Shown here piece by piece: positions 4,189 to 63,521 of a stretch of DNA of 64,000 nt. Made by a program: the position numbers and the translations under genes. Numbering within the stretch: position 1 is the stretch's first letter; the number at the start of each line of letters is the position of its first letter. The notes under the pieces were generated by a model. That model did not search any database, had not been told where the DNA came from, and saw nothing but the letters and a program-made list of their open reading frames with translations. Origin of the DNA: a virus; IMG/VR virus record IMGVR_UViG_3300020202_000078; one strand, 5' to 3'.

Positions 4189-4815
4189 TCACGCGGCGGC
4201 CTGGAGATAGCGGGCCGTCAGCTCCTCGAGCTTGGCGTCCAGTTGGGCCAGAAAGTCGGTGACCTCGGCCTCGGCTTCAGCGATGAACGCGGGGTCACGG
4301 GGAACCCGCTGAATGAACAGCCGCATGGCCTCGGGAAGCCTGGGATCGTAGCTGGCGAAGTCGCACCACGCCCGTCCGGTGCAGGCCATCTGCCACTGCA
4401 TCTGCGTGACGTACTTCGCCGGGACCGCGCCGCCCAAGAGGGTGTCGAGGTGCGTGGCCGTGTTGGGGCACTTGATCTCCAACATGCCGTCTTCGCCGAC
4501 CAGGCCGTCGGGGCTAGCGCCGGTCATGGCGATCACCGGATGATCGACGAAGCCGACCTCGACCACGTCCACGTCAGCCATGAAGGCGTAGGCGGCGCGG
4601 GCCTCCGGTTCCTTGTCGGCTCCCCACTGCATCGCGGCGTTGGTGAAGCCTTCGGTCCTCACACCAGCGAGCCTTTCGGCGATCAGCTCTGCCATGTAGT
4701 TGGCTCGGCTGGCGCTGTAGCCGGTCTTCGTCTTGGCGATCACGTCCGCTACGCGGGAGGCGGTGACCTTGCCAAGCCGGGCGGCGAACCATTCGGGGGA
4801 GCCCTGGACGATCAT
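4189..4815 (-). CDS. YqaJ-like viral recombinase exonuclease (lambda Exo family)
   Basis: GSPEWFAARLGKVTASRVADV N-terminal motif of the YqaJ domain. Confidence 0.8.
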   Translation of the reverse strand: MIVQGSPEWFAARLGKVTASRVADVIAKTKTGYSASRANYMAELIAERLAGVRTEGFTNAAMQWGADKEPEARAAYAFMADVDVVEVGFVDHPVIAMTGASPDGLVGEDGMLEIKCPNTATHLDTLLGGAVPAKYVTQMQWQMACTGRAWCDFASYDPRLPEAMRLFIQRVPRDPAFIAEAEAEVTDFLAQLDAKLEELTARYLQAAA

Positions 4816-5693
4816 TTCGCGGCCTTTCGCTTGGCTTCGAGCGCCTTCATGACCTTGTCGAAGTCGCGGGCCGGGATCGCGGCGATACTTTCGGCCTTGA
4901 TGTAGGCCAGGAACCGCTTCCGATCGGCGCCCACGTCTTCCATGAGGGCCTGAACCTCGGCTTGCTGATCCTCCGAAAGGCCGGCGGGATCACCGCCGCT
5001 CTTGCCGTCATCGTCCTCGCCACGGCTGGTGATGTTCAGCAGGGCCATTGCGGTGTAGCGCTTGCCGTAGCTGGTGCTGGAGCCGACCGCCTGGACAGCG
5101 TTCTTGCTGCCGGTGCTGTCATGTGGAAGGGTGATTGTCGTCTCTTCCTGGTGGCCCGCGCTGTGCGACAAGATGCCGGTGACGATGATCTTGCCGTCGG
5201 CGGCGAGGCCCGTGCGGAAGGACAAGGCGAAGCCATGTTCGGACAGGGCCGGGCGGATCGCCTCGTTAATATCCTCCCACAGCGCGTAAGGGGTGGAGTG
5301 GCCCTGCTTGCCGTCCTTTGCGGGAACGATGATCCTGCCGCGCTCGGTGATGACCGGAAGCTTGGGTTGCATGGCGGCCAGCGCTGCGGCATACGCGGCC
5401 TTCGCGTCCCGGTCGCTGATGCGCTCGTACATGTCGAGCAACCGCCCCAGCTTCTCGACATCGGTGTTGGGGTCGGCGGCGGCCCGGCTGATGACCTCCA
5501 TGATGGTCGCCGGGTTGGTCTGGACGACCTCGGCGGCTACGGCGGTAGCGGTGTCTCGTTTGGCGACGGCGCCCATCGGGCTCTCCTCTTCGGGTTGATG
5601 TTCGATCTCGCAGGCCAGCAAAGACGGTTGAAACTCCGCGACGGTTTGGGGATCTTCGTAGGGCTGCATCGGCAGGCTCCGGTCTCTGGCCAT
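4812..5693 (-). CDS. erf: ERF-family single-strand annealing protein
   Basis: Adjacent to and coupled with the YqaJ exonuclease; ERF-like core with YGKRYT; acidic C-terminus. Confidence 0.6.
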   Translation of the reverse strand: MARDRSLPMQPYEDPQTVAEFQPSLLACEIEHQPEEESPMGAVAKRDTATAVAAEVVQTNPATIMEVISRAAADPNTDVEKLGRLLDMYERISDRDAKAAYAAALAAMQPKLPVITERGRIIVPAKDGKQGHSTPYALWEDINEAIRPALSEHGFALSFRTGLAADGKIIVTGILSHSAGHQEETTITLPHDSTGSKNAVQAVGSSTSYGKRYTAMALLNITSRGEDDDGKSGGDPAGLSEDQQAEVQALMEDVGADRKRFLAYIKAESIAAIPARDFDKVMKALEAKRKAAK

Positions 5694-6682: not shown

Positions 6683-7023
6683 GGGATACGCTCCAGCTCG
6701 GCCAAGATGCAGGTAGTCGGGTGGGTCTCGTCGGGCCAAGTCACCCAGGCGTGGCCGGGCGCAAGGCCAATGATCTCGCCGATGGTGTGGGTTCCCGGCG
6801 GGCTATTGACCATCACAACGCGGTCGCCCAGCCGTAACGGGCGAGGGACTATTGAGTGGATGGTGGAGACGTAGGCTGAGAAGGACTCTGGCGTTCTGTC
6901 GATTGTTTGCAGCGAGACGTAGGGCTCGGGATCGCTATACCCTCGGGTTGCCGCACCAATGATCTCGCATTCAAGCAGAACCCGGTCGCCGTCTCGCAGC
7001 TTCTTCGCTTCTTCCTCAGTCAT
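6679..7023 (-). CDS. Hypothetical phage protein
   Basis: 114-aa ORF. Confidence 0.5.
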   Translation of the reverse strand: MTEEEAKKLRDGDRVLLECEIIGAATRGYSDPEPYVSLQTIDRTPESFSAYVSTIHSIVPRPLRLGDRVVMVNSPPGTHTIGEIIGLAPGHAWVTWPDETHPTTCILAELERIP

Positions 7024-7427
7024 TGGTCTCTCTCCTGAGAAGGGGTGGGGGGCATCCCGGAGGCGGCATCCACCGTCTGCGGCGACGAGGCGACACGAGA
7101 GGCCGGTGTGTTCGCTGCGGCCCGTCGCTTGGCGTCGGCGATCTTTTCGGCCAGGGCGTCGCGCTCCGCTGTCTTGGCGGCGAGGGCGGCGTCCAGTTGG
7201 TCAAAGGCCCTCGACACCGGAACCGCTTCGTCCCTCCGGTAGGGCGGCGGATCGTGGTATTCCCGCGCCTTCTCGAAGTCGAAGATGCCGGCTTGGGTGA
7301 TGTCGTCCGTGTAGCCGGCCGCGCCGCCGTCTGACGACCGACGGTGCCAACGGCTCCAATGGTGCGACCAGATCATCCACGGGCCAGCGTCGGGATTGAT
7401 CGGCTTGAACGGTTTGCGGCGGGCCAT
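7020..7427 (-). CDS. Hypothetical protein with coiled-coil C-terminus; flanked by inverted 40-bp repeats
   Basis: Start MARRKPFKP at 7427 overlaps the upstream stop. Confidence 0.5.
   Translation of the reverse strand: MARRKPFKPINPDAGPWMIWSHHWSRWHRRSSDGGAAGYTDDITQAGIFDFEKAREYHDPPPYRRDEAVPVSRAFDQLDAALAAKTAERDALAEKIADAKRRAAANTPASRVASSPQTVDAASGMPPTPSQERDQ
7047..7087. repeat. 40-bp repeat copy B
   Basis: Match to 1683-1723. Confidence 0.7.
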
Positions 7428-8071
7428 CAGCGGCTCTCCTGCGAACACGGTGACGATTGCGGGTCGCCGTTTGGCGTCGCCGCAGACGGTTGATGACACT
7501 CCTGGGATGCACCCACCCCTTCCCATGCCTGAACAGTGGAGAGGGCGGAGAGGGCTGCGCGGCACTCTTCTTGGGCGGCCTTGGCTTCCTCGATATCGCC
7601 CCGATAGGGGACTGCTCCCGTCACGGCGTCGAGCGCCCAGCAAGCCCGTTGAGTGGCCTTCCTCAGAGCCTTGACCACCCCCGCATCTGGGGAGGGGAGG
7701 AGGGCGGCGGCTCTCTCAAACAGGACCGCGTCAGCTTCCATGTCCTGGGCAACGTCAGCCGGCATCGCCGCGAGCCAGTCACCGGGCTCCGAGGCGTTGG
7801 TTGCGGCCAGCGTTGCCCGTAGGTCGGCGGCACGCTTCAGCAGTCCTTCCCGTACTCCCTCTAGGGGGGTGTTGGGGGGCCTACCGTTGCTCTCGGCTGC
7901 CGTCGAAGCGCTGGTCGTATTGCTCCCAGCGTCAGGCGTCGGCGTGTTCAGGGTAGGCGCACGAAGCCGATCAGCCGCCGCCGTGTTTCGCCGAAGTTCG
8001 GCGTCTTGGTCCGCCTCCGAATGTTTCGCGCATGGATTGATATTGGAGCAGATCAGGCAACGGCGGCTCAT
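7427..8071 (-). CDS. Hypothetical protein with N-terminal Cys cluster
   Basis: CLICSNINPC; coupled. Confidence 0.5.
   Translation of the reverse strand: MSRRCLICSNINPCAKHSEADQDAELRRNTAAADRLRAPTLNTPTPDAGSNTTSASTAAESNGRPPNTPLEGVREGLLKRAADLRATLAATNASEPGDWLAAMPADVAQDMEADAVLFERAAALLPSPDAGVVKALRKATQRACWALDAVTGAVPYRGDIEEAKAAQEECRAALSALSTVQAWEGVGASQECHQPSAATPNGDPQSSPCSQESR
7475..7519. repeat. 40-bp repeat copy C (inverted)
   Basis: Reverse complement matches copies A and B. Confidence 0.65.
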
Positions 8072-8709
8072 CCCTGTTCTCCGGTGGCTTTGGCCTCGCC
8101 GAACGCGACGAACATCTCGACGGTGCGCCTGGTCCCCAAGGCCCGCTCGATGGCGCCCAACTCCTCGCGGGTGACGCCGACCCCCAGAGCCACGCGCCGG
8201 AACGTCTCCGTTCGCTCAGCGAACCGCGCGCCCCACTCGCGGCGCAGATCGTCCCAGGCGGCCGCGCTCTGCGCCTCGTGGGCTTCCTGTCCAGGGACCA
8301 GTGCCTCGCCTTGCGAGCACGCCGCATCGGCGGTCGGTGACTGATCCCGGGAGAGCCCCTCATGACATACGGTCGGGGCGGAGAGCGCGGCGTAAAGGGG
8401 CTCAACCTCCTTCTGCGCTCCGACGTTGCTGTCGGTCGTGTAGTTCCACGGCGGCGACAGGGGGCTGTCTGGATGCAGGCCGGCGGCTTCCTTGGTCCAT
8501 CTCCATCGCCAAGCCACGGGCTCCCCCTCCCTCATCGGGGAGGAGGGGGCGGCGGCAAGGGCGGCCAGCACCACGTCAACGGCTTCGTTGCGACGCTCGC
8601 GCTCCTTGCGGTCGACGGAGCCCTCACCGACATGGCCGGGGTCACGCTCAATGCCGAGGCGGCGAAGCGCGACGGGCAACGACAGGCTCTCGCCCTTCAC
8701 TTCAGACAT
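8068..8709 (-). CDS. Hypothetical protein sharing a TADAAC..LVPG segment with the DUF551 protein at 2100-2713
   Basis: 213-aa ORF. Confidence 0.5.
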   Translation of the reverse strand: MSEVKGESLSLPVALRRLGIERDPGHVGEGSVDRKERERRNEAVDVVLAALAAAPSSPMREGEPVAWRWRWTKEAAGLHPDSPLSPPWNYTTDSNVGAQKEVEPLYAALSAPTVCHEGLSRDQSPTADAACSQGEALVPGQEAHEAQSAAAWDDLRREWGARFAERTETFRRVALGVGVTREELGAIERALGTRRTVEMFVAFGEAKATGEQG

Positions 8710-8766
8710 TGGGACGCCCCGCGATTTGATGGATGGGAAGGCCGGAAGTGTGGAGTTGGAGCGCGT

Positions 8767-8949
8767 TCATGCTTTACCCGTGGCGCGGGAGATGGCGGGC
8801 TCGCAGAAGGGGCACGGGAAGCTCCCGGCGCAGCGGTCGGTCGCGTTGACGCAGACCAGCTTCACGAAGCGGCCAAGGCCATCACGGGGTGCGTGGTAGA
8901 CCGGTGCCGGCGCCTTCTCCCCTTGCGAGCGCTCTGTATGGGTATTCAT
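8767..8949 (-). CDS. Small hypothetical protein (paralog of 59352-59543)
   Basis: RBS GGGAGGA; ERSQGEK..ISRATGKA shared with the right-arm copy. Confidence 0.45.
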   Translation of the reverse strand: MNTHTERSQGEKAPAPVYHAPRDGLGRFVKLVCVNATDRCAGSFPCPFCEPAISRATGKA

Positions 8950-9035
8950 GGGTTCCTCCCGGGACTGAGGCTGGCGTCTGTGAGTGGACGCGGTGCCGTG
9001 GCCCGCGCCACCTTCGGGGGTCGGCGTGTTCGTGC

Positions 9036-46397: not shown

Positions 46398-49300
46398 TTG
46401 CAGGTGACAATGGAACGCAACGGGCCTCCGTTCGGCGCGGACGGTGACGCGCTGGTCTATGCCGGCGAGGTCGTGGCCGTCGGCTGGCGGCTTCTCGACG
46501 ACAACGATGCGGTACAGGACTACGCCAACCGCAGCTTTGCCTTGCGGGTCTTCGGAACGCTTGGCGTAACGCCGGTCAACGTCGCCGCAGAGGTCGTTGA
46601 TGACGCGGACGGTGACTATCTGCTGGCCACCCTGACAGGAGACCAGACGGCGGCCCTGGTCCCGAGCGGCCGGGCGGGCGCCGTCCTGCGTTGGTCGTTC
46701 GACGAGCTGGTGGATGGCGGTCGAAGCGTCATCGAGTCCGGCGAGTTCCGGGTGAAGATCGCGGCCGACCCTGATCTCAACGAGCCCGCCGCTGGTGCTG
46801 GAGGGGCTCCGGCCGTCATCTACAACGTCCCGGCAACGAGCCCCATCCGCACAGTGGTTTACAGCGGGGCGCCGGGGGTTAGCGCTTACGCGGCGGCCGT
46901 TTCGGCGGGCTACACAGGGACTCCGGAAGAGTTCGCGGAGGCCCTTGCTGAGAACGCAACGGCCGTTTCGGAGAACATCGCGGACATCAATGCCGCAGGT
47001 GCTACCCAAGTCGGACTGGTCAATTCAGCCGGGACTACTCAGGTCGCCAACGTCAATGCGGCGGGCTCAACCCAGGTCGCGGCCGTCAATTCCGCCGGGT
47101 CGACCCAGACGGCCGCCGTCAACGCTGCTGGGGCCGCCGCGCAGTCAGCCATTGCGGCTGACGTGGCGACCAGTGGGGCCAATGCAGCGTCGGCCGCCAC
47201 CAGCGCTGCAGACGCCGCCCTGAACGCGGCATATGCCGGCGGCGTCGGGTTCACCTTTTCGACTACCACTACCGACAGCGACCCGGGCGCGGGGAACATC
47301 CGCTACAACAACGCCACGCCCGCTTCGGTGACCTTCCTCTACATCGACGATACGGATGTAGGCGGCGGGACGGCAAGCGGCTGGGTCGACACCTTCGACG
47401 ACGTCGAGGGACCGGTGCGGGGCCAAATCTACCTAGCCGAGCCCGGCACGCTGAAATACGCGGTGTTCGACGTCACCGGCGCGGTGGTGACCGGCACCGG
47501 CTATCGCAAGGTCCCGGTGGTCTGGCGCGAGGGTTCGGCAACGCTGCCGACCAACGCCGCCCGCGTGAACCTGCAATTCACCAGGGCTGGCGTGGCGACG
47601 GGCGGTGTCGCCATGACCTTCTCCAGCACCACCACAGACGCAGACCCGGGCAACGGCAATATCCGGTTCAACAACGCGACCCTCGCTAGTGTGACGATCC
47701 TCTACATCGACCTGCAGGAGGTCGGCGGCGGTTCCATCACGGCGTGGATCGACAGCTTCGACGACGTGAACGGCGGTGTTCGGGGTCAATTGATCCTGAA
47801 TGAGCCGGCCAGCGGCAAGTTCGTGCTGTTCAACGTTACCGGTTCCATCACCGACGGCGGAGGCTACCGGAAGGTCCCGGTAACGTATGTGGCGGGATCG
47901 TCGTCGAACTTCACCAACGGCAATCGGCTGCTGCTGAGGTTTGCGCCGGCAGGGTCCGAAGCCGGCATTGCGTTCCAATTCTCGACCACCATCACCGATG
48001 CTGACCCGGGTTCAGGCTTCATTCGCTTCAACAGCGCGACCGTTACCGCCGTTACCCAGATCTTCGCCGACAACAATGCCGCTGGCGGCAATGCCATCTC
48101 CGGATGGCTGGACACCTTCGACGACGCCGACGCGGCGGTGAAGGGCCAAATCTACATCGTGGAGCCGGGAACGGCGAAGTTCACCGTCTTCAACGTGACT
48201 GGCGCCGTCCTCGACGGAACCGGCTACCGGAAGATCAACGTCGCCTGGGTGGCGGGCGTCCTGCCGACGAACAACGCCCGGGTCCTGCTGACGTTCGCTC
48301 GGTTCGGCGCTGACGCCGATGCGGCGGAGATCGCCCAAAGCGCCGATACCTACCGGTTTGGGAAGGCGCGGTATGAGGCCGAAATCGCCGAGCGGCTCGC
48401 GGCCTATCCCGCACAACAGGTCCGGCCGACGTCCTGGGTTCTGAGCGGCGTCACCTACAACGACGACGGCACGTTCACCGGGACGCCCGGCGGCACGATG
48501 ACCACCACCCTGACCGCCGCGCCGTGGGTCGATCCTGCGGCGACCCGGTATATGTACGCGGTTTCGAAGTCGGGAACGTCGGGCTCCGTTACTCTGGCGT
48601 CCAGGGCGCACGCCAGCATCGCCTACAACCCGCCGGCCGTTGAGACCGAGCCGTTCCCCGGCACAAAGAAGCTGGCGTGGGCGAACACCTCAAACGGTGG
48701 CACGACGGTTCGTGGAACGACCGTCACCAACACCATCACCTTCAACGTCGATGATACGATCTTCGAGCCCGAGGTCTGTCTGACAGACAGCCCCTTCATG
48801 CCGAGGATCATGCCCACGCTGCCGGCGGAGCCGTACATCGATCCCCGCCCGTGCTGGGAAGAGACATTTGAGACGCACCGCCGCTGGAGGAACCGCCGTC
48901 TCACCATGCGGGCGGCGGCAGAGACGAGCATCACCAAGGCGGTCAACAGCCTCTCTGGGTCGGATGCGGCTGCTGGAGACCGCTTCAATCCCAAGCAGAA
49001 CATCACCGGCCTGACTGCGCTCGGGGCCTTGGCGGATGGCGCCGTGGTTGGCCTTTGGGGCGAATGGGACAACCAGGGCTTTGGGAGCAGCGTCGGAACG
49101 GTCTCAAAGGGGTTGATCTTCATGGCGCAGCCCCAAGGGCGGCGCCGTGCCAGTTGGAGTGGCGAGACTTATAGACGCCAGCCCTGGCCTCGGATGAACG
49201 GCGACAAGGACGTCACCGATCAAACTTGGACCCTCGAAAGCGGGACCTGTTGGAAGACCACCTACACCGTCAACACCGGGACCAACCTTGCCCCGGTGAA

Positions 49301-50990
49301 CGACGCCTACTCCACCATGCATTGTCTCCGGGTCCAGCGAGACATCATGGACGCGACGCCATTGGCCGCCGAGCGGCTGATGCGCCAGGCCACGTCCAAG
49401 GCCAACTGCATCGCCACGAGTGACAGCTCGTGGTTTGAGCTGGTCAGCGGTTCGACCTGGACCCTCTACGTCAATATGCCGGATGGCCTTGCGCCAGACG
49501 TCGGAGCCTACCGGGTCCGCCCGGTGTCCACGTTCGGCGCAATCGTCTGGGGCCAGAACGTCGACCGCGACGGCGGGGCTGTCTACGACATCTTCTTCAG
49601 CCACTTCAACGCCGGCCTGGGGATCGTCAATGGCGGCCAGAACATCGACTATTCCGGCTGCGTATTCGCCCACAATCCAAAGCACATCACGAACAGCGGC
49701 GGCGGCTCGTTTACGGACTGTCTCTACTACTCGCGCGGCTACTCCACGAGCAACCTGCTGAACATCTACGCGCCGGATGCTCTGGGCATGTCGGCGATCA
49801 TCCGCGATGTCGTGATCGATAGCGACACGCCGGGTGGGTCGATCTACGTCCACCGGGGGGGAACTGAGTTCACAGGCTCCATCACTGACGACGTGATGAC
49901 CGTCGATTCCTTGCCGACTGGCGCGGTTACACTTCGTATCGGCTACGTCGTGAGAAACACGGCCGAGACGGTAGCGGTCGGCACCTACATCGCCGAGCAA
50001 CTCACCAGCACCGAGAGCGGCGGCACGCTTGGCTTGCGCGGCACCTACCGCGTCACCATCGGCGGACAGGCTATCGCCAGCGGTACGTTGGGCGCGGGCG
50101 GCAACTTCTTCTACGTCGAGGTTTCCGGCGTCTCCGACGTTATTGTTCCCGCCGCCTCCGGCGCCCTCGCGGGCGATCACCCCCAGGCTATCGACCAGAC
50201 CGAACACGCGCTGATCGAGGGTTACCACACCCACGGTTACTACACGGCGTTCGGCGAGGCCGGCAGCTGGGCCGTCCCGTGCGCCTCCATCTGCCGCTAT
50301 AGCCTCTGCACCGCCTGTTCGCGGAATACGTCGTTCGCCGACAAGCACGACAACGTCGTCATCGTGCGCAATGCCTCCATCGACGCCAACAATCGCGGGA
50401 TGCGGCTGCAGCGGCTTATGGAGGGCCATCAGGTCCACCATGAGACAGTCTTCGCCCGAACGGTCCAGACGGCCTATGGCGACGCCAACCCCGGCTCCGA
50501 CTATCTGGCAGCCATCTATGAAGTCGGCTCGACCGCCGCCCAACAGCAGGGTCAGACCCCGAGCTGCACGTACTCCCTCCTGGTCGCAGATTGTCCCCAC
50601 AGCACTGTCGGAACTCGGATTCGCTTGGACAGCGCCGCCGGCCAAGCGTTGCTGACCGACTGGAACATCATCGTCGTCTTCACGCCCGGGAACATGAGTT
50701 CCGCGGTATTCGGCGGGGCCACGAAGCTGACCTGGGACGAGTACCTGGTGGACTTCGCCCCGAACGACGCTAACAGCCGGTTCTTCGACTGTCGGGGTAT
50801 GGCGGGGGGGGCGGCCAACCTGTTCGTGGATCCGGACAACAACGACCTGCGCATTCGCACTGACACCGAGCTAGGCCGGGCAGTGCTGGCGGCAATGGCG
50901 GAGATGGGCGCCGGCGCGAGCTGGACCATCGGCGGAACACCTCGACGCCTCACGGCAGACGAGTACCTCACAACCCTGCAGCACGGCTAA
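46398..50990 (+). CDS. Tail fiber / tailspike (1530 aa) with four ~110-aa tandem repeats and a C-terminal beta-helix-like domain
   Basis: Repeats GxxFxFSTTTTDxDPGxGxIRxNNAT...GYRKVPV x4; pectate-lyase-like Gly/Asn-rich C-terminus. Confidence 0.75.
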   Translation: MQVTMERNGPPFGADGDALVYAGEVVAVGWRLLDDNDAVQDYANRSFALRVFGTLGVTPVNVAAEVVDDADGDYLLATLTGDQTAALVPSGRAGAVLRWSFDELVDGGRSVIESGEFRVKIAADPDLNEPAAGAGGAPAVIYNVPATSPIRTVVYSGAPGVSAYAAAVSAGYTGTPEEFAEALAENATAVSENIADINAAGATQVGLVNSAGTTQVANVNAAGSTQVAAVNSAGSTQTAAVNAAGAAAQSAIAADVATSGANAASAATSAADAALNAAYAGGVGFTFSTTTTDSDPGAGNIRYNNATPASVTFLYIDDTDVGGGTASGWVDTFDDVEGPVRGQIYLAEPGTLKYAVFDVTGAVVTGTGYRKVPVVWREGSATLPTNAARVNLQFTRAGVATGGVAMTFSSTTTDADPGNGNIRFNNATLASVTILYIDLQEVGGGSITAWIDSFDDVNGGVRGQLILNEPASGKFVLFNVTGSITDGGGYRKVPVTYVAGSSSNFTNGNRLLLRFAPAGSEAGIAFQFSTTITDADPGSGFIRFNSATVTAVTQIFADNNAAGGNAISGWLDTFDDADAAVKGQIYIVEPGTAKFTVFNVTGAVLDGTGYRKINVAWVAGVLPTNNARVLLTFARFGADADAAEIAQSADTYRFGKARYEAEIAERLAAYPAQQVRPTSWVLSGVTYNDDGTFTGTPGGTMTTTLTAAPWVDPAATRYMYAVSKSGTSGSVTLASRAHASIAYNPPAVETEPFPGTKKLAWANTSNGGTTVRGTTVTNTITFNVDDTIFEPEVCLTDSPFMPRIMPTLPAEPYIDPRPCWEETFETHRRWRNRRLTMRAAAETSITKAVNSLSGSDAAAGDRFNPKQNITGLTALGALADGAVVGLWGEWDNQGFGSSVGTVSKGLIFMAQPQGRRRASWSGETYRRQPWPRMNGDKDVTDQTWTLESGTCWKTTYTVNTGTNLAPVNDAYSTMHCLRVQRDIMDATPLAAERLMRQATSKANCIATSDSSWFELVSGSTWTLYVNMPDGLAPDVGAYRVRPVSTFGAIVWGQNVDRDGGAVYDIFFSHFNAGLGIVNGGQNIDYSGCVFAHNPKHITNSGGGSFTDCLYYSRGYSTSNLLNIYAPDALGMSAIIRDVVIDSDTPGGSIYVHRGGTEFTGSITDDVMTVDSLPTGAVTLRIGYVVRNTAETVAVGTYIAEQLTSTESGGTLGLRGTYRVTIGGQAIASGTLGAGGNFFYVEVSGVSDVIVPAASGALAGDHPQAIDQTEHALIEGYHTHGYYTAFGEAGSWAVPCASICRYSLCTACSRNTSFADKHDNVVIVRNASIDANNRGMRLQRLMEGHQVHHETVFARTVQTAYGDANPGSDYLAAIYEVGSTAAQQQGQTPSCTYSLLVADCPHSTVGTRIRLDSAAGQALLTDWNIIVVFTPGNMSSAVFGGATKLTWDEYLVDFAPNDANSRFFDCRGMAGGAANLFVDPDNNDLRIRTDTELGRAVLAAMAEMGAGASWTIGGTPRRLTADEYLTTLQHG

Positions 50991-53982: not shown

Positions 53983-54261
53983 ATGACGCTCCCCAAGATC
54001 GTCACCGACCTGTTTACCGGCCCTGACGGCCACACCTGGCACATGGGCCGGTTCGGCGCGGCCATGACGGTGATCAGCGGTCTTCCCCTGCCTTGGGTGC
54101 AGCTCTGGCGCACAGGTGTCCTGGACCTTGCGGCGACGGGCGTCTTCTACAGCGGTGTCGCGGCTGGGGCCTGGGCGATGGCCCAGGGCGCCAAGAACAT
54201 GGACCTGATGCCTGAGGGGTCCGCCACCACAACCACCACCACGACAACGGAGACCCTGTAA
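53983..54261 (+). CDS. Holin candidate (2 TM) with poly-Thr tail
   Basis: Immediately upstream of and coupled to the endolysin. Confidence 0.5.
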   Translation: MTLPKIVTDLFTGPDGHTWHMGRFGAAMTVISGLPLPWVQLWRTGVLDLAATGVFYSGVAAGAWAMAQGAKNMDLMPEGSATTTTTTTTETL

Positions 54262-54638
54262 TGTGGACCTGGGATCAATCCGCCGGAAAACTCTACCACA
54301 ACGGCCAGCTCGTCTCGACCGGCTACAGCGGCAAGGCGCGCGGGAAGAACAACCCGGCCATGCAAGGCGAGCGAGGCTTCGGTCCGATCCCGCGCGGCAA
54401 GTGGAAGATCGTCAGCCGCTATGACAGCAAGAACGTCGGCCCCTACGCCCTGACCCTTCACGCTGTCGATGGCAAGTTGGACGACACGCACGCCCCAACG
54501 GGGAGGGGAGCGTTCCGCATCCACGGGGACAGCGCGCGGGCTCCCGGCACGGCGAGCCAAGGCTGCATCATCCTTCCCCGGGCCATTCGCGAGAAGATCT
54601 GGACGAGCGGGGATCGTGACCTGGAGGTGGTGGAGTGA
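54261..54638 (+). CDS. Endolysin candidate, DUF2778/Tlde1-like L,D-transpeptidase-fold peptidase
   Basis: GAFRIHGD...GTASQGCIIL His/Cys motif; lysis-cassette context. Confidence 0.55.
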   Translation: MWTWDQSAGKLYHNGQLVSTGYSGKARGKNNPAMQGERGFGPIPRGKWKIVSRYDSKNVGPYALTLHAVDGKLDDTHAPTGRGAFRIHGDSARAPGTASQGCIILPRAIREKIWTSGDRDLEVVE

Positions 54639-55404: not shown

Positions 55405-56232
55405 TTAGCGGATGTTGACGAACGGGGTTGCGCCGGGGCCGACGACCTGCGGCATCTGGCCATTCCACTTGGCGATGGCCTGCTGTTCCAGAACCTGCGG
55501 ATTGGCGCGGAGGGCCTCGCCACGGAGGCGGTATGCTTCGGCGTCACCCTTGGCGATGGCGATCTTCTCCAGGGCTTGCGCCTCCGCCACTTTCACCTTG
55601 GCGGTGGCCGCGAGAACGTTCTGGTCGGCTTGGGTGCGCGACTTGATGCTTTCGAGGATCAGGTCGGGGAAGCGGATCGAGCCGATCCATTCCAGTTGGG
55701 AGATTGTCACCCCCTCCTTCGACCATTTGGTCTGGACGGTCTTGAGGGCGCGCTGGATCACCTGCTGACGCCCGCCAGCCAAAAGGTCATCGACGCCGAC
55801 CTTCTCCGTTTCGGCGGCGATGGCGGCCCGCACGTCGTTGCGGATGGGTCCGTCGAGCAGTTGGGGAAAGCTGAGCCGGTACTTGGCGTACAGGGCTGGC
55901 GCGGCTCTCGGCTCGACCTTCAGGGTGGCGGCCACGTCGGCGGTCATGGGCAGGCCGGTGCGGTCGGTGAAGACGATCTCTTCGTTTTCGTCGCCGTCGT
56001 CGGTCTTCTCGCGGGTGTAGGGGTAGGTCTTCTGGATCGTCGGATAGACCTCGATACGCTCCCCGATGCCGGTGGCGTGCCACCCGTTCGGCAAGGCTTC
56101 CTGCTGGACACCGGCGCCAGAGCCGAGGGTCTTCACCTTCACGCCGGCGTTGCCCGGCTCAACGGTCTTGCCGCAAGCGGCGGTGGAAAGCGCGGCGACA
56201 CAGACGGCCGCCAGGATGATGGCTCGCTTCAT
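55405..56232 (-). CDS. SPFH/band-7 (HflC/stomatin-like) domain lipoprotein
   Basis: Lipobox LSTAAC; SPFH core; RBS GAGGA. Confidence 0.6.
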   Translation of the reverse strand: MKRAIILAAVCVAALSTAACGKTVEPGNAGVKVKTLGSGAGVQQEALPNGWHATGIGERIEVYPTIQKTYPYTREKTDDGDENEEIVFTDRTGLPMTADVAATLKVEPRAAPALYAKYRLSFPQLLDGPIRNDVRAAIAAETEKVGVDDLLAGGRQQVIQRALKTVQTKWSKEGVTISQLEWIGSIRFPDLILESIKSRTQADQNVLAATAKVKVAEAQALEKIAIAKGDAEAYRLRGEALRANPQVLEQQAIAKWNGQMPQVVGPGATPFVNIR

Positions 56233-56470
56233 TGGTTCCTCGTAGGTTGGAAGTGCTTGGCGACGTCGCGGAACATGACCAGGGCGACCCAGGCCAGACC
56301 GAGAACGCCGAACGCGGCGGCGGCAACAGCGCCGAACAGGCCGTAGTCGCTCGCCGAGCCCCAGAGGGGGCCAACGACGCCACGGAACAGGGTCATTGCG
56401 GCGGCGATCCAGAGGAGGGCGTAGGCCGCCCCCTTCGCCGCGCCGATGAACTGGCTTTCGTACACGGGTG
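56229..56470 (-). CDS. Small 2-TM membrane protein partnered with the SPFH gene (NfeD/YbbJ-like arrangement)
   Basis: GTG start with RBS GGAGA; hydrophobic. Confidence 0.4.
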
Positions 56471-56577
56471 ATCTCCTGCGGCGACGGGGCGGGGGTTGCA
56501 AAATCGCCGTGACGTAGATATAAACGCGACGTTGATTTTGAGCAATACATGCCGGAAGAAAAAACGACGCCACGTAG

Positions 56578-56832
56578 ATGAGTTGTGCGACTCCCCCCGA
56601 CGCGCTATCCGCTGCCCTGGTGAAGAACACGCCCTGGCAAGCGCGGCTGAAGGCTGCCGGCCTGACGCAGAAGCGTCTCGCCGCGCTGCTGGGCGTGGCT
56701 GAGAACACGATCTCCCGCCAGATGAAGGGGGATTGGGACGTGCCAGGCTATGTGGAGGCGTTCGTGGTCGCTTGGGAGGAAAGCCCCCCGGACGTCAGGG
56801 AGCGGGTCGCCAAGCGGCTGGGCAAGCCCTAG
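56578..56832 (+). CDS. XRE-type HTH regulator divergent from the SPFH operon
   Basis: AGLTQKRLAALLGVAENTISRQMKG. Confidence 0.5.
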   Translation: MSCATPPDALSAALVKNTPWQARLKAAGLTQKRLAALLGVAENTISRQMKGDWDVPGYVEAFVVAWEESPPDVRERVAKRLGKP

Positions 56833-56921
56833 ACCCGGGCAGAGCCTTCGAGGGCGTCGTGTCTTAGGTACCGGGCCACACGGCTGAGGTAAACTCGGTC
56901 AAAATCGGTAAACTCGATCAA

Positions 56922-56953
56922 GCCCCTCGGTTCAGACCGGGGGGCTTTTCGCG
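56922..56953 (+). terminator. Rho-independent terminator
   Basis: gcccctcggttcagaccgggggg followed by CTTTTCG. Confidence 0.55.
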
Positions 56954-56959
56954 TTTGGG

Positions 56960-57238
56960 CTAGGCGGTCTGCGCGTTCGGAGCGTCGTCATCCTCGTACA
57001 GGCGCTTGCCGGTCTCGTCTTCGATCCAGACCGTATAGCGCTCGTCGCCGCATTCGGACTCATGGTCATCGTCGCCGGCTGCTTGCGCGAAGAACAGGCC
57101 TCGGTTGCAGTCACAAGACCAGTTGCCCATGTCCCAAATGAACTCGGCAGCCTCTAGGTCTTCCGCAAACCAAAGGTCGCGGTCAGTCAGGGAGCGAACC
57201 TCGGCCGTCGTGTTGTCGCGGATGAAGACCGTGGTCAT
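56960..57238 (-). CDS. Hypothetical acidic protein
   Basis: ORF. Confidence 0.45.
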   Translation of the reverse strand: MTTVFIRDNTTAEVRSLTDRDLWFAEDLEAAEFIWDMGNWSCDCNRGLFFAQAAGDDDHESECGDERYTVWIEDETGKRLYEDDDAPNAQTA

Positions 57239-57678
57239 GCTGCGGCTTTTGTCAGGCCAGCAAGGACGGCGATGTTCCGCTGATATTTCCAGAACCGCTT
57301 GTGGTCCTTCTGGGTCGGGTTGGGAATGCGGGACAGGTCGGCGTTGTCCTGCAGGTCCGCCATCTTCACGATGCGGGCGATGGGGTTGCGGGACACGCGC
57401 TTGATGAAGGCGCCATAGGCCTCGCCATCGCGGCGGGTCAGGGCCTCGACGGCTTCGATCACTGGCGCGGAGAAGCCTTCGCGTGCGAGGTCGGCAGCGG
57501 TTACGTCGGTGTCCTCCAAGACGTCGTGCAGGACCGCCGCGATGCGCGCCTCGTCCCCGTCAACGTCGATGGCAAACATGACGCGGAGCGGATGGAGGAT
57601 GTACGGCGCACCGCCATTGTCCACTTGGCCAGCGTGGGCGGTGACCGCAATCTGAATGGCGCGCTCCAGGCTGCTCAT
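57235..57678 (-). CDS. Small alarmone hydrolase (RelA/SpoT-type HD domain (p)ppGpp hydrolase, SAH)
   Basis: AHAGQVDNGGAPYILHPLRV...IAAVLHDVLEDTDVT...KMADLQDN. Confidence 0.75.
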   Translation of the reverse strand: MSSLERAIQIAVTAHAGQVDNGGAPYILHPLRVMFAIDVDGDEARIAAVLHDVLEDTDVTAADLAREGFSAPVIEAVEALTRRDGEAYGAFIKRVSRNPIARIVKMADLQDNADLSRIPNPTQKDHKRFWKYQRNIAVLAGLTKAAA

Positions 57679-58771: not shown

Positions 58772-59155
58772 TCATCTGCCGATGTCCGTGAGGTAGTCGA
58801 TTGCCGCTTCGTGGCGGGCTTTGATGTCAGCCTTCTCGAAGGGATCTAGGCGGAAGCCTTCAGGGGCGTCGCACTCGTTCAGCAGGTAGGTGACGGCGCG
58901 GGTGAGGCCCTCAAGGTGATCCGCACCCCCTGCCGCATTGGATGCTCGGAACCCCGCCTCAAAGGCTGCCCACAGCGCGCGTCTGGAGTGGCCGGGATAG
59001 CTCGCCTGACGACAGGCGTTCTCAAAGTCGTCTGTCGCTGCGTAGGCGCACCATGCAAGCTTCACGGGCTCGTCCGGACGATGGCCGTTGCCCGCCCCGT
59101 CACTTCCCGTCTGCGTGTTCGCAGGCTCAGGGCGTCGTTCGCCATGGCTGTTCAT
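58772..59155 (-). CDS. Hypothetical protein; the same frame stays open ~190 bp upstream and encodes a Cys/His-rich zinc-ribbon-like segment without any ATG/GTG/TTG
   Basis: Manual translation of 59156-59350 gives FSFICGCEHCGHKYRRGDGYADNYFCTQVVPGQHCPECG. Confidence 0.4.
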   Translation of the reverse strand: MNSHGERRPEPANTQTGSDGAGNGHRPDEPVKLAWCAYAATDDFENACRQASYPGHSRRALWAAFEAGFRASNAAGGADHLEGLTRAVTYLLNECDAPEGFRLDPFEKADIKARHEAAIDYLTDIGR

Positions 59156-59351
59156 GCCGCACTCAGGGCAGTGCTGGCCGGGGACGACCTGCGTGCAGAA
59201 GTAGTTGTCGGCGTATCCGTCTCCGCGCCGGTACTTGTGACCGCAATGCTCGCAGCCGCAGATGAAGGAGAAGTCGTTCCGATATTGATCCCACTCCTGG
59301 TCAGTGGGATCGGTCGCGGCGGGACTGAGGCTGGCGGGAGTTGGAGCGCGC

Positions 59352-59543
59352 TCATGCTTTACCCGTGGCGCGGGAGATGGCGACTTCGGCTTTGCGAATG
59401 AACGTCATGCCCTCGCGGGCGATTGCGGGGGTGGTGCTCAGCAGGGCGAAGCGGAACAGTTCCTTGACCTCGCGAAGGCTCTCCACCAGATCGGCGATCA
59501 GCTCGTCCTTCTCCCCTTGCGAGCGCTCTTTGGGCGTAGTCAT
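59352..59543 (-). CDS. Small protein paralogous to 8767-8949
   Basis: Shared ERSQGEK and ISRATGKA; flanking DNA duplicated. Confidence 0.45.
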   Translation of the reverse strand: MTTPKERSQGEKDELIADLVESLREVKELFRFALLSTTPAIAREGMTFIRKAEVAISRATGKA

Positions 59544-59761
59544 GGGGCGGTCTTCTTGACGGCAGCGGCGACCGCATCCCGATCCAGCCACAGCACCAAG
59601 CCGAGCATCTTCGTCCCCTTGAGGTCGATGGGCTGCCCCGTCCCAAAGGTGATCTTCGTGCCCTTCTTCTCGCTGTAATTCAGGTCGATGGCGCACTGGT
59701 CGAGGTTCTGAAACTGGACGTTGTCATCGCCGACGGCGAGAATGAGTTCGGACATTTTCAT
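59540..59761 (-). CDS. Hypothetical small protein
   Basis: RBS GGGAGGAA duplicated from 8951-8981. Confidence 0.45.
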   Translation of the reverse strand: MKMSELILAVGDDNVQFQNLDQCAIDLNYSEKKGTKITFGTGQPIDLKGTKMLGLVLWLDRDAVAAAVKKTAP

Positions 59762-59970
59762 TGGGGGTTCCTCCCGGGACTGAGGCTGGCGTCTGCGCGG
59801 CGCTCCTCTTGGTCGCTGCCACTTGGCTTCGGCGTGTTTGTAGGGGCGCACCAAGGGCACGGTTCGGTGCGCCAAGCGGCCTCGGCATGGTCGAACCATC
59901 CGATCTCACCCCGACCATTGCAGGCCTCGCACACCCGCTTCTTCCGCCGGGGCTTCGGCCTGATACCCAT
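59758..59970 (-). CDS. Small zinc-finger protein
   Basis: CEACNGRG...CPWC. Confidence 0.35.
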   Translation of the reverse strand: MGIRPKPRRKKRVCEACNGRGEIGWFDHAEAAWRTEPCPWCAPTNTPKPSGSDQEERRADASLSPGRNPQ

Positions 59971-59993
59971 CGCGGGTTTCCACAGATGATTGC

Positions 59994-60233
59994 TCACGGC
60001 ACCAGCTCCCTCATTGGGACCTCAAGAAAGTCGGCGATCTTGCGGAGCCGGGAGACGGGCAGATCGGAGCGCCCGCACTCGATGTTGGCGACCTGTGCCC
60101 GCGACAAACCGGCAGCGCTCGCCACTTCGTCCTGCGTTTTTCGCTTGGCCTTGCGGGCCGCCTGGATAAACAGGCCGACGTGAGCCTTCTCGATGGGCAG
60201 ATCACCCGTGCCGTCGCAGTAGGGGCACTTCAT
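59994..60233 (-). CDS. XRE-family HTH regulator with N-terminal zinc ribbon
   Basis: CPYCDG; KTQDEVASAAGLSRAQVANIECG. Confidence 0.6.
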   Translation of the reverse strand: MKCPYCDGTGDLPIEKAHVGLFIQAARKAKRKTQDEVASAAGLSRAQVANIECGRSDLPVSRLRKIADFLEVPMRELVP

Positions 60234-60944: not shown

Positions 60945-60949
60945 TGGCT

Positions 60950-61013
60950 ATCTCCGATATCGTAGTTGAACTCTACACCCATCCCTGTTAGGGTCAACCA
61001 CGATATCGGAGAT
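60950..61013. promoter_or_regulatory. Perfect 14-bp inverted repeat ATCTCCGATATCGT / ACGATATCGGAGAT (37-bp spacer) in a divergent promoter region
   Basis: Seen directly in the sequence. Confidence 0.5.
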
Positions 61014-61056
61014 AGAGATATTTTGACCGCAACCGCGATATCGCTCACAACGCTCC

Positions 61057-62355: not shown

Positions 62356-62580
62356 TCAGGGACTAGGGGGCTCAGTCAAAGCCTGCCGAAGGTCGGCAAC
62401 CTCTTCCAGCCGCCAGGCAATCTCCTCCTGCAGATCTTCCAATCGGGCGCGCATGGCGGCCTCGATAGTGGGGTACTCGCCGTTGATCCCGGCGGGGATG
62501 TCGTGGATGTAGCCCGCGTCGCTCGATATGAAGGTCGCCGGTTCATCCTCGTGGTGTTGCCAAGTCCAGGTCAGTTCCAT
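62356..62580 (-). CDS. Hypothetical protein
   Basis: ORF. Confidence 0.35.
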   Translation of the reverse strand: MELTWTWQHHEDEPATFISSDAGYIHDIPAGINGEYPTIEAAMRARLEDLQEEIAWRLEEVADLRQALTEPPSP

Positions 62581-63237: not shown

Positions 63238-63261
63238 CTTCCGATGGCTCCCCGGGCAGGA
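63238..63261. repeat. attR: attR core
   Basis: Exact match to 187-210. Confidence 0.8.
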
Positions 63262-63320
63262 CTCGAACCTGCGACCCGGCGGTTAACAGCCGCCTGCTCT
63301 ACCAACTGAGCTACCGAGGA
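63245..63320 (-). tRNA. tRNA-Asn (GTT anticodon)
   Basis: Reverse complement tcctcggtagctcagttggtagagcaggcggctgttaaccgccgggtcgcaggttcgagtcctgcccggggagcca; 76 nt; cloverleaf with a CUGUUAA anticodon loop. Confidence 0.9.
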
Positions 63321-63521
63321 ACATCGCTTCGGAAGGAGGCGGCGTATACGCCGGGGGCGGCGGCGGTGCAAGCCGTGCGGGGCGGAAAAAAGAGCCCGGC
63401 GGATGAGGCCGGGCTGTTCAAAGTCTGTGATGGTGGGGTGTCTTCAAGGAAGACGTCCGGAAGGTCGAACTTTATGGTTAACGAGAGGTGAATCGCGCGC
63501 GTTGAATCGCAAGGTGAGGGA

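Follow-up and report, generated by a model that had tools for sequence, protein, structure and literature searches.

The DNA analysed here, referred to as the window, is the 64,000-nucleotide (nt) stretch of the IMG/VR virus record IMGVR_UViG_3300020202_000078. It holds a prophage of 63,051 bp from a temperate phage, in whose two arms the same short sequences recur at the ends of two small open reading frames (ORFs), designated ORF A in the left arm and ORF B in the right arm. By repeat search and self-BLAST, three collinear blocks common to positions 8752-8980 and 59337-59795 were detected, in the same order and on the same strand. All of them lie on the minus strand, and they were named U (leader), N (start codons) and C (gene end). 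The U block (8950-8980 and 59765-59795), a leader with a ribosome-binding site (RBS), is identical in 31 of 31 positions (E 3e-9). The N block (8913-8952 and 59507-59546), which comprises the ATG and 12 codons, matches in 35 of 40 positions (88%, E 9e-6), including a 23-nt exact run. The C block (8752-8797 and 59337-59382), containing the last 10 codons, the TGA stop codon and 15 nt beyond it, matches in 45 of 46 positions (E 3.7e-16), and its 31 coding nucleotides are exact between the copies. The exact runs in U, N and C are thus 31, 23 and 31 nt long. In 100 shuffles, neither the N nor the C core string was matched once, and in the self-comparison of the window the similarity, with E values down to 3.7e-16, was far beyond chance; the repeat is real. 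A first-pass annotation made from the letters alone had listed repeated strings at 8766-8981 and 59350-59795, all of which were recovered at these places, and had read them as a segment of the early-left operon duplicated in the right arm. Of this description the repetition of three short blocks stood, but the gene cores between them are not homologous and the similarity is confined to the ends of the genes.

The genes surrounding each copy of the repeat all lie on the minus strand. The left copy lies within the early-left operon, which extends from about 10788 down to 1440, and has the coding-strand order U-N-core A-C. Its U block, CAGACGCCAGCCTCAGTCCCGGGAGGAACCC, contains a GGAGG Shine-Dalgarno sequence and directly adjoins the ATG of ORF A (8767-8949, minus strand), which encodes 60 amino acids (aa) and has a coding GC pattern with a GC content at third codon positions (GC3) of 0.79. 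The left N block encodes MNTHTERSQGEK, the first 12 residues of ORF A, and the left C block includes an ATG that overlaps the stop codon of ORF A (ATGA). At this ATG starts a mini-ORF of 22 codons, MNALQLHTSGLPIHQIAGRPNV (8702-8770, minus strand), which ends 8 nt into gene 8068-8709. Junctions between genes of the early-left operon range from -14 to 0 nt, except on the two flanks of ORF A, where they amount to +86 and +57 nt.

The right copy is found within an accessory operon and has the coding-strand order U-ORF C-N-core B-C-U16. Here the U block is the leader of ORF C (59540-59761, minus strand; 73 aa), which sits between the right U and N blocks, and it also encodes the end (..DASLSPGRNPQ and the stop codon) of an uncalled upstream ORF at 59758-59997. 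The string GGGAGGAACCC within the U block abuts the ATG of ORF A in the left arm and is located 3 nt before the ATG of ORF C in the right arm. The right N block encodes MTTPKERSQGEK, the first 12 residues of ORF B (59352-59543, minus strand; 63 aa; GC3 0.78; coding GC pattern), and its ATG overlaps the stop codon of ORF C (ATGA). A 16-nt partial copy of U, CGCCAGCCTCAGTCCC (59321-59336, minus strand), abuts the right C block. The third copy that had been reported at 59321 was thereby confirmed as an exact 16-mer, GGGACTGAGGCTGGCG, which is present in exactly three copies, at 8961, 59321 and 59776. The two right-arm copies, 59321-59336 and 59776-59791, form 16-nt direct repeats that bracket a 455-nt unit of RBS, ORF C and ORF B. 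Downstream of its 16 nt, the third copy continues with GCCGCG where the other two have GGGAGGAACCC-ATG.

ORF A and ORF B share the termini M.T..ERSQGEK and AISRATGKA, as had been noticed at first pass, and their cores gave no BLASTP alignment with each other. In direct searches with ORF A, ORF B and a zinc-ribbon ORF of the right arm (see below), the query was the sole sequence retrieved. Nothing was matched by sequence in Pfam, PADLOC or PDB, and word-indexed searches, Pfam and PHROGs yielded nothing for ORF A or ORF B. Relatives surfaced solely through a search with a profile of ORF A and ORF B against 1.84 billion representative proteins. It retrieved 18 proteins, one of which was ORF A itself; the 17 others split into 14 ORF B-like and 3 ORF A-like proteins.

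ORF B is 53-67% identical to the relatives P0004-P0013, and the family follows the pattern ..L(R/K)E(M/L)KELFRFALL(S/C)TTPEIAR(D/E)GM.FIRKAEAAIAKA(T/E)G. In about a dozen of the relatives the C-terminus reads ..KAEAAIAKA(T/E)G or nearly so. Several of them form the C-terminal half of proteins of 96-143 aa that match phrog_1273, a family of unknown function, end to end, tail included, and P0005, P0006, P0010 and P0013 do so at E values of 1e-9 to 1.7e-15. In the phage sequence L015, the gene neighbouring an ORF C relative likewise matches phrog_1273 over its whole length. For P0005, PF27050 (Phage_P22_Y8K6) is listed in a precomputed annotation, and the local copy of Pfam gives this protein no match. 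ORF B itself has no direct PHROG or Pfam match. Its single-sequence AlphaFold (AF2) model is a two-helix hairpin with helices at residues 4-34 and 39-60 (pLDDT 88), with which Foldseek retrieved generic helical hairpins only (E >0.5). Whereas the C-terminal half of the relatives, including the tail, matches phrog_1273 as part of a longer protein, ORF B consists of that hairpin half only, and by these comparisons it is to be regarded as the short form of a family whose long forms match phrog_1273.

Both ends of ORF B were compared with those of its relatives. The protein aligns with P0005 from residue 1 (MTTPKERSQGEK versus MATPGE-SPGAM). At the DNA level (blastn, MAFFT), the homology of ORF B to L170 and L172 (75-76%) continues into the C block, to 59362, near which CGCCATCTCCCGCGCCACGGG of ORF B faces CGCCATCGCCAAGGCCACCGG of the relatives. 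By these alignments, the coding part of the C block certainly belongs to the ORF B family as its own C-terminus, and the N block probably originates from this family as well.

ORF A belongs with a different set of proteins. It has the core motif of a 4-Cys family, RDGxGRFV..C(x5)C(x5-7)CPxC, and its core (..PRDGLGRFVKLVCVNATDRCAGSFPCPFCEP) is 63-72% identical to those of P0016, P0017 and P0020, with all four Cys kept. These three relatives define the family pattern ..RDGxGRFV.LVCVNA.DRC....PCP.CEP, and their tails after CEP differ in all three (ARAA, KSSLRQ.. and APQLTKE...). The alignment of ORF A with its nearest relative, P0016, is confined to residues 12-52, between the N and C blocks, and the homology within the family goes no further than ..CPFCEP. 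The DNA homology of ORF A to L171 and L176 (78-84%; blastn, MAFFT) ends at 8794-8795, and the C block starts at 8797. A structure model of ORF A was too poor for use (pLDDT 61); the core is probably a zinc-binding mini-protein. On the strength of these comparisons, the C block is foreign to the ORF A family. Because the same block is native to the ORF B family, ORF A reads as a chimera with ORF B-type ends, composed of an ORF B-type N-terminus (residues 1-12), a 4-Cys core and the ORF B-type tail AISRATGKA. This argues against a duplication from the early-left operon into the right arm, as had been assumed at first pass, since the C block fits the right-arm family and is foreign to that of ORF A. 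A transfer from a right-arm-type gene to the left-arm gene seems the more likely direction.

The additional right-arm gene described at first pass, ORF C, is real and is a full-length member of phrog_6851 (E 6.9e-16, positions 1-74 of 77), a group of small phage proteins of unknown function. Twenty relatives of ORF C with 52-75% identity were found in IMG/VR, and none of the 20 has a U block upstream. No profile similarity was detected between the ORF C and ORF B families (hhalign probability 0.2). ORF C is bounded on both sides by CCC(C)ATGA, and its loss or gain at this microhomology would interconvert the arrangements U-ORF C-N of the right arm and U-N of the left arm.

Throughout the right operon, genes are joined by 4-nt overlaps, except at a 232-nt stretch and at a 196-nt stretch after ORF B. 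The 232-nt stretch holds the uncalled ORF at 59758-59997 (minus strand), a zinc-ribbon ORF of 79 codons (CxxC...CxxC) that is connected to its neighbours by GTGA and ATGA overlaps; the U block supplies its last 11 codons, and it has a weak match to phrog_33780 (E 0.009). The 196-nt stretch contains the domain of a second zinc-ribbon ORF, 58772-59311 (minus strand), which matches phrog_14808 (E 3.6e-13), like phrog_6851 a group of small phage proteins of unknown function, and is fused in frame to a called ORF of 127 aa. In this frame there is no ATG, GTG or TTG before 59155. Stand-alone homologues (JeffCo gp51 and a coding sequence of PMBT28) start at the equivalent of 59311, 9 nt past the 16-mer, while the copy in the window has no start codon there and continues in frame for another 107 residues. 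The sequence of this locus is identical in independent assemblies. Because the homologues begin at this point and GCCGCG takes the place of GGGAGGAACCC-ATG, the downstream zinc-ribbon gene is likely to have lost its RBS and start codon at the C/U recombination joint. That this ORF and the one at 59758-59997 once formed a single gene was also considered and is unlikely, as no phage protein spans both and the homologues start at the joint.

Between the stop codon of ORF B and the ATG at 59155 lies an out-of-frame ORF of 67 codons (59152-59355, minus strand), linked to each by an ATGA overlap. Across this stretch the zinc-ribbon frame has GC contents of 0.60/0.44/0.81 by codon position, so that a high-GC third position, as is typical of coding sequence here, is excluded for the shifted 67-codon frame. 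It is possibly a coincidental open frame, although it may act as a translational coupler. On reading the sequence, no slippery heptamer for a -1 frameshift from this ORF into the zinc-ribbon frame was seen.

Recombination, one of the two explanations offered at first pass, best accounts for the shared blocks. We consider it probable that ORF A, which shares its ends with a gene of unrelated core, is a chimera that arose by recombination, as an instance of phage mosaicism. Mosaic joints were directly observed: near-identity in the U and C blocks (98-100%) changes abruptly to non-aligning cores, the cores belong to two homologue families, and the boundaries of homology coincide with those of the blocks. 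The missing start codon of the downstream zinc-ribbon ORF is likewise shown by the sequence. What we infer is in which direction material was transferred, which enzymes took part and how the events followed one another. A set of ORF B-type ends (U, N and C) and a 4-Cys core would have been combined in the early-left operon, the ends being donated by the right arm, by a third phage or by a co-infecting relative. Two routes may be envisaged. Either ORF A's own ends would have been overwritten by ORF B-type ends, or a copy of an ORF B-type gene would have received the 4-Cys core by an in-frame insertion. The swapped piece would measure about 120 nt inside a gene of 60 codons. Joints of the same kind may be recognized in the right arm, where ORF C stands between the leader and ORF B and a 16-nt leader remnant follows the C block. 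On this view, the blocks would be traces that recombination has left behind and at which it could act again; they would not constitute an element dedicated to regulation.

The phage has its own short-homology recombination machinery, namely an ERF single-strand annealing protein (4812-5669, minus strand; PF04404) and a YqaJ exonuclease (4189-4815, minus strand; PF09588), both identified by Pfam in the gene calls of identical contigs; an action of these enzymes on the U, N and C blocks is putative. The minimal length of exact pairing was reported to be 23-27 bp for Red-beta and 31-34 bp for RecA, and Rad52-like recombinases, including Erf, were described to be efficient on short and diverged sequences (De Paepe et al., 2014; PMC3945230). 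The exact runs of 31, 23 and 31 nt in the blocks lie around these lengths and equal or exceed the minimum given for Rad52-like phage recombinases. The mosaic joints with relaxed or short homology described in that study resemble the situation found here in that near-identical short blocks stand at gene ends between unrelated flanks, and in that the phage has an ERF-family annealing protein together with an exonuclease. They differ in that both partners are here present in one genome, whereas phage genomes were noted to be usually without repeats, and in that the swapped piece is here only about 120 nt long and is read from sequence alone.

Several points weigh against this interpretation. The joints of the core share only 3-4 nt of microhomology, so that formation of the chimera itself would have needed illegitimate recombination and not annealing of the ERF type. 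U, which can be counted among the ORF B-type ends only tentatively, leads ORF C in the right arm and ORF A in the left arm. The assignment of the N block to the ORF B family rests on one homologue with 6 of 12 identities. In IMG/VR, GTDB genomes and JGI metagenomes, no close relative of the phage and no empty site or intermediate was found, and the direction of transfer consequently rests on comparison at the level of families. Finally, selection at the level of protein or translation may have contributed to the shared ends. Loci anchored on ERF (53), on gene 8068-8709 (3) and on the integrase (80) had nothing in common with the ORF A or ORF B regions.

As an alternative, the blocks might belong to an adaptor-flanked mobile cassette, in which U-bounded units are excised as mini-circles and re-inserted at copies of U, with N and C serving as in-frame adaptors. 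The exact 16-nt direct repeats at 59776-59791 and 59321-59336 fit this idea, since they bracket the 455-nt unit and joining of its ends recreates a full U block, but the left copy has no second U, and the second right-arm copy is followed by GCCGCG, where a simple crossover should have left the RBS and ATG. Neither ORF A nor ORF B has relatives closer than about 50-70% identity, and the two loci are the only loosely packed spots of their operons, as might be expected of mobile units; yet among 1.84 billion representative proteins and in DNA scans no others with these adaptors were found, and all independent assemblies covering the locus have one and the same arrangement. We therefore regard a mobile cassette as unlikely. 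Precedent is provided by the ORFans flanked by PeSLs in T4-type phages (PMC2839356). A PeSL combines a sigma-70 promoter with a terminator stem-loop and is present in many copies (Arbiol et al., 2010, PMC2839356; Comeau et al., 2014, PMC4122927). Like PeSLs, the short repeated motifs described here stand beside small, functionally uncharacterized genes in plastic regions, and their direct repeats could give rise to mini-circles, but the U, N and C blocks have neither promoter nor stem-loop, occur in 2-3 copies and extend into the coding ends. In an integron test, no significant attC-like hairpin was found in either cassette, and the only integrase found is the one at the attachment (att) site.

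A related proposal goes further and takes the leader, the 12 start codons, the 10 end codons and the coupling junction as portable adaptors for the in-frame exchange of cores in coupled operons, with the 455-nt unit as the footprint of a mini-circle. To this we give little credence; if true, adaptor exchange would be a coding-level analogue of PeSL shuffling. The separate idea that the C block is a portable junction of unrelated genes had arisen from the L015 gene and some ORF C relatives, which end in AIA(R/K)ATG, and was dropped when the L015 gene proved to be full-length phrog_1273 and hence a homologue of ORF B.

The first-pass annotation had also offered a repeated regulatory or terminator element. 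In its wider form, this explanation holds that U, N and C are a functional cis element, such as a translation-initiation or coupling module, a site for a regulator or small RNA (sRNA), a terminator or a nut-like site, that selection keeps identical at the two genes, in the manner of the Start-Associated Sequences (SAS) of Cluster K mycobacteriophages. No promoter- or terminator-like site was detected at any block, RNA folds at the blocks were no better than those of shuffles (z +1.1 and +0.5), no Rfam family matched there, and neither a GC-rich hairpin with a U tract nor boxA/boxB on the transcribed strand was found at the blocks. The string GGGAGGAACCC right before the ATG does resemble the SAS form GGGNNNNNNNCCC with its embedded AGGAG (PMC3203893). 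SAS is a 13-bp motif that is found at many genes per genome, with 93 sites catalogued, and that all three subclusters of Cluster K have conserved (Pope et al., 2011; PMC3203893). The U block is similar to the SAS/ESAS elements of Cluster K mycobacteriophages in having the form GGG...CCC with a Shine-Dalgarno core, before the ATG of unrelated genes and in one orientation, but it is 31 nt long, occurs twice in full and was absent from other phages of IMG/VR.

Within the 64 kb, the blocks are present in only 2-3 copies, two of them full, and looser matches to U were at chance level (6 found versus 4.8 expected). The U, N and C strings had no exact match in IMG/VR, and a degenerate pattern of the C tail (AISRATGKA-stop) had none in GTDB genomes. 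A 21-mer of U was matched by four metagenome contigs that share with the window only the 21-22-mer; in the two of them that were inspected, it lies inside otherwise dissimilar sequence, and all four look like chance matches. A role in translation would be in line with the C block, whose ATGA stop/start overlap opens in both arms a short ORF reaching the start of the next gene, and with the right operon, all junctions of which are 4-nt overlaps if these short ORFs are counted, although the coding part of the C block is no more than the C-terminus conserved in the ORF B family. Taken together, a functional cis element appears improbable, and the restricted occurrence of the blocks speaks against the regulatory or terminator element of the first-pass annotation. 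One gene might also have been duplicated long ago, its core then diverging very fast while the termini were conserved. This would account for the similar lengths of 60 and 63 aa, the same orientation and the common ends, but it deserves almost no credence and is refuted by the two separate, non-aligning families in which the cores have their own homologues (53-72% identity), while the 98-100% DNA identity of the blocks, including non-coding flanks, is incompatible with an old event.

The prophage carrying the chimeric gene is delimited by a 24-nt att core at 187-210 that is found again at 63238-63261, within a tRNA-Asn gene (63245-63320). At the att site lies the sole integrase found (380-1516; PF13356, PF22022 and PF00589), with its closest relatives, at about 50% identity, in Phenylobacterium, Brevundimonas and Caulobacter. 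The host flank contains the Caulobacter sRNA CC0196 (63391-63450, Rfam), and the phage is integrated in the tRNA-Asn gene of a host of the Caulobacterales. Downstream of ORF A, the early-left operon includes the genes of ERF and YqaJ, an excisionase-like HTH_17 gene and the integrase gene. The same phage was found at 99.96-100% identity in several metagenome contigs of ENA and JGI; since these are identical and independent, the features at both copies of the repeat are not assembly errors. One contig, k141_977595, has a length of 63,192 nt, corresponding to 63,051 plus 141 (k), and joins window position 187 to 63261 across the core. It represents the excised circular genome, and the phage therefore appears to be active.

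A promoter-like site near 60970-61015, within an inverted repeat of 22 nt, marks the beginning of the right operon. The inverted repeat (60948-61015) is 95% complementary with a 24-nt spacer and is located between divergent genes, and a promoter-like sequence, TTGACC-16-TAGAGT, overlaps it on the minus strand. The region is likely the operator/promoter of the right-arm operon. Further accessory genes of the right arm, at 55405-57678 (minus strand) and about 54261-54638 (plus strand), have HD_4, Band_7 and Tlde1-domain Pfam matches in the identical contigs; a PADLOC scan that covered the HD_4 and Band_7 proteins found no match. ARAGORN reported a tRNA-Trp (31300-31379, 80 nt) and a tRNA-Ile (62454-62541, 88 nt) inside the phage, and both calls are doubtful because Rfam at gathering threshold confirms the host tRNA-Asn only.

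Other repeats were also observed. A second repeat family of about 42 nt with 85-90% identity is located at 1662-1703, 7046-7087 and 7475-7519. Two direct copies lie in the last 20 or so codons of genes 1633-2103 and 7020-7427, just before the next start, and encode ..SPQTVDA(E/A)(P/S)GMPP.., and one inverted copy is in the 3' end of gene 7427-8071. A 67-nt repeat with 82% identity (2376-2441 and 8290-8353) encodes a common linker, ..TADAAC..LVPG.., of two proteins, one of the DUF551 type (2100-2714) and the other the product of the gene that immediately follows ORF A (8068-8709). Diverged tandem repeats of 87 nt are present in a structural gene (29331-30026), and repeats with a period of 360-363 nt (47238-48248) in a tail-fibre-like ORF of 1530 aa (46398-50990). 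In L015 (2696-3241) and L017 (1050-1342), two unrelated phages with ORF C relatives, strings of 16-22 nt are repeated in or between adjacent small genes, and in L015 CAGGTGCAGCATGAGC stands at two successive stop/start overlaps. Short repeats at junctions of small genes may be common in these alphaproteobacterial phages.

The origin of ORF A by recombination would be a known kind of event that leaves the understanding of phage mosaicism unchanged, and the blocks are not a new kind of element. Read in this way, the locus would provide a clean and datable case of how phages build new small genes by an in-frame swap of a core of about 120 nt, in which the leader, start and tail of one gene were kept and the direction can be read from family comparisons, with the lost start of the adjacent zinc-ribbon gene as collateral damage. 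The repeats, being in the same orientation, are now long enough for the phage's own ERF and YqaJ to recombine; recombination between the blocks could remove 50.6 kb from the prophage or resolve the circular genome into two circles of 12.5 kb and 50.6 kb. For the annotation of small phage proteins, the locus is a warning that common termini need not mean homology.

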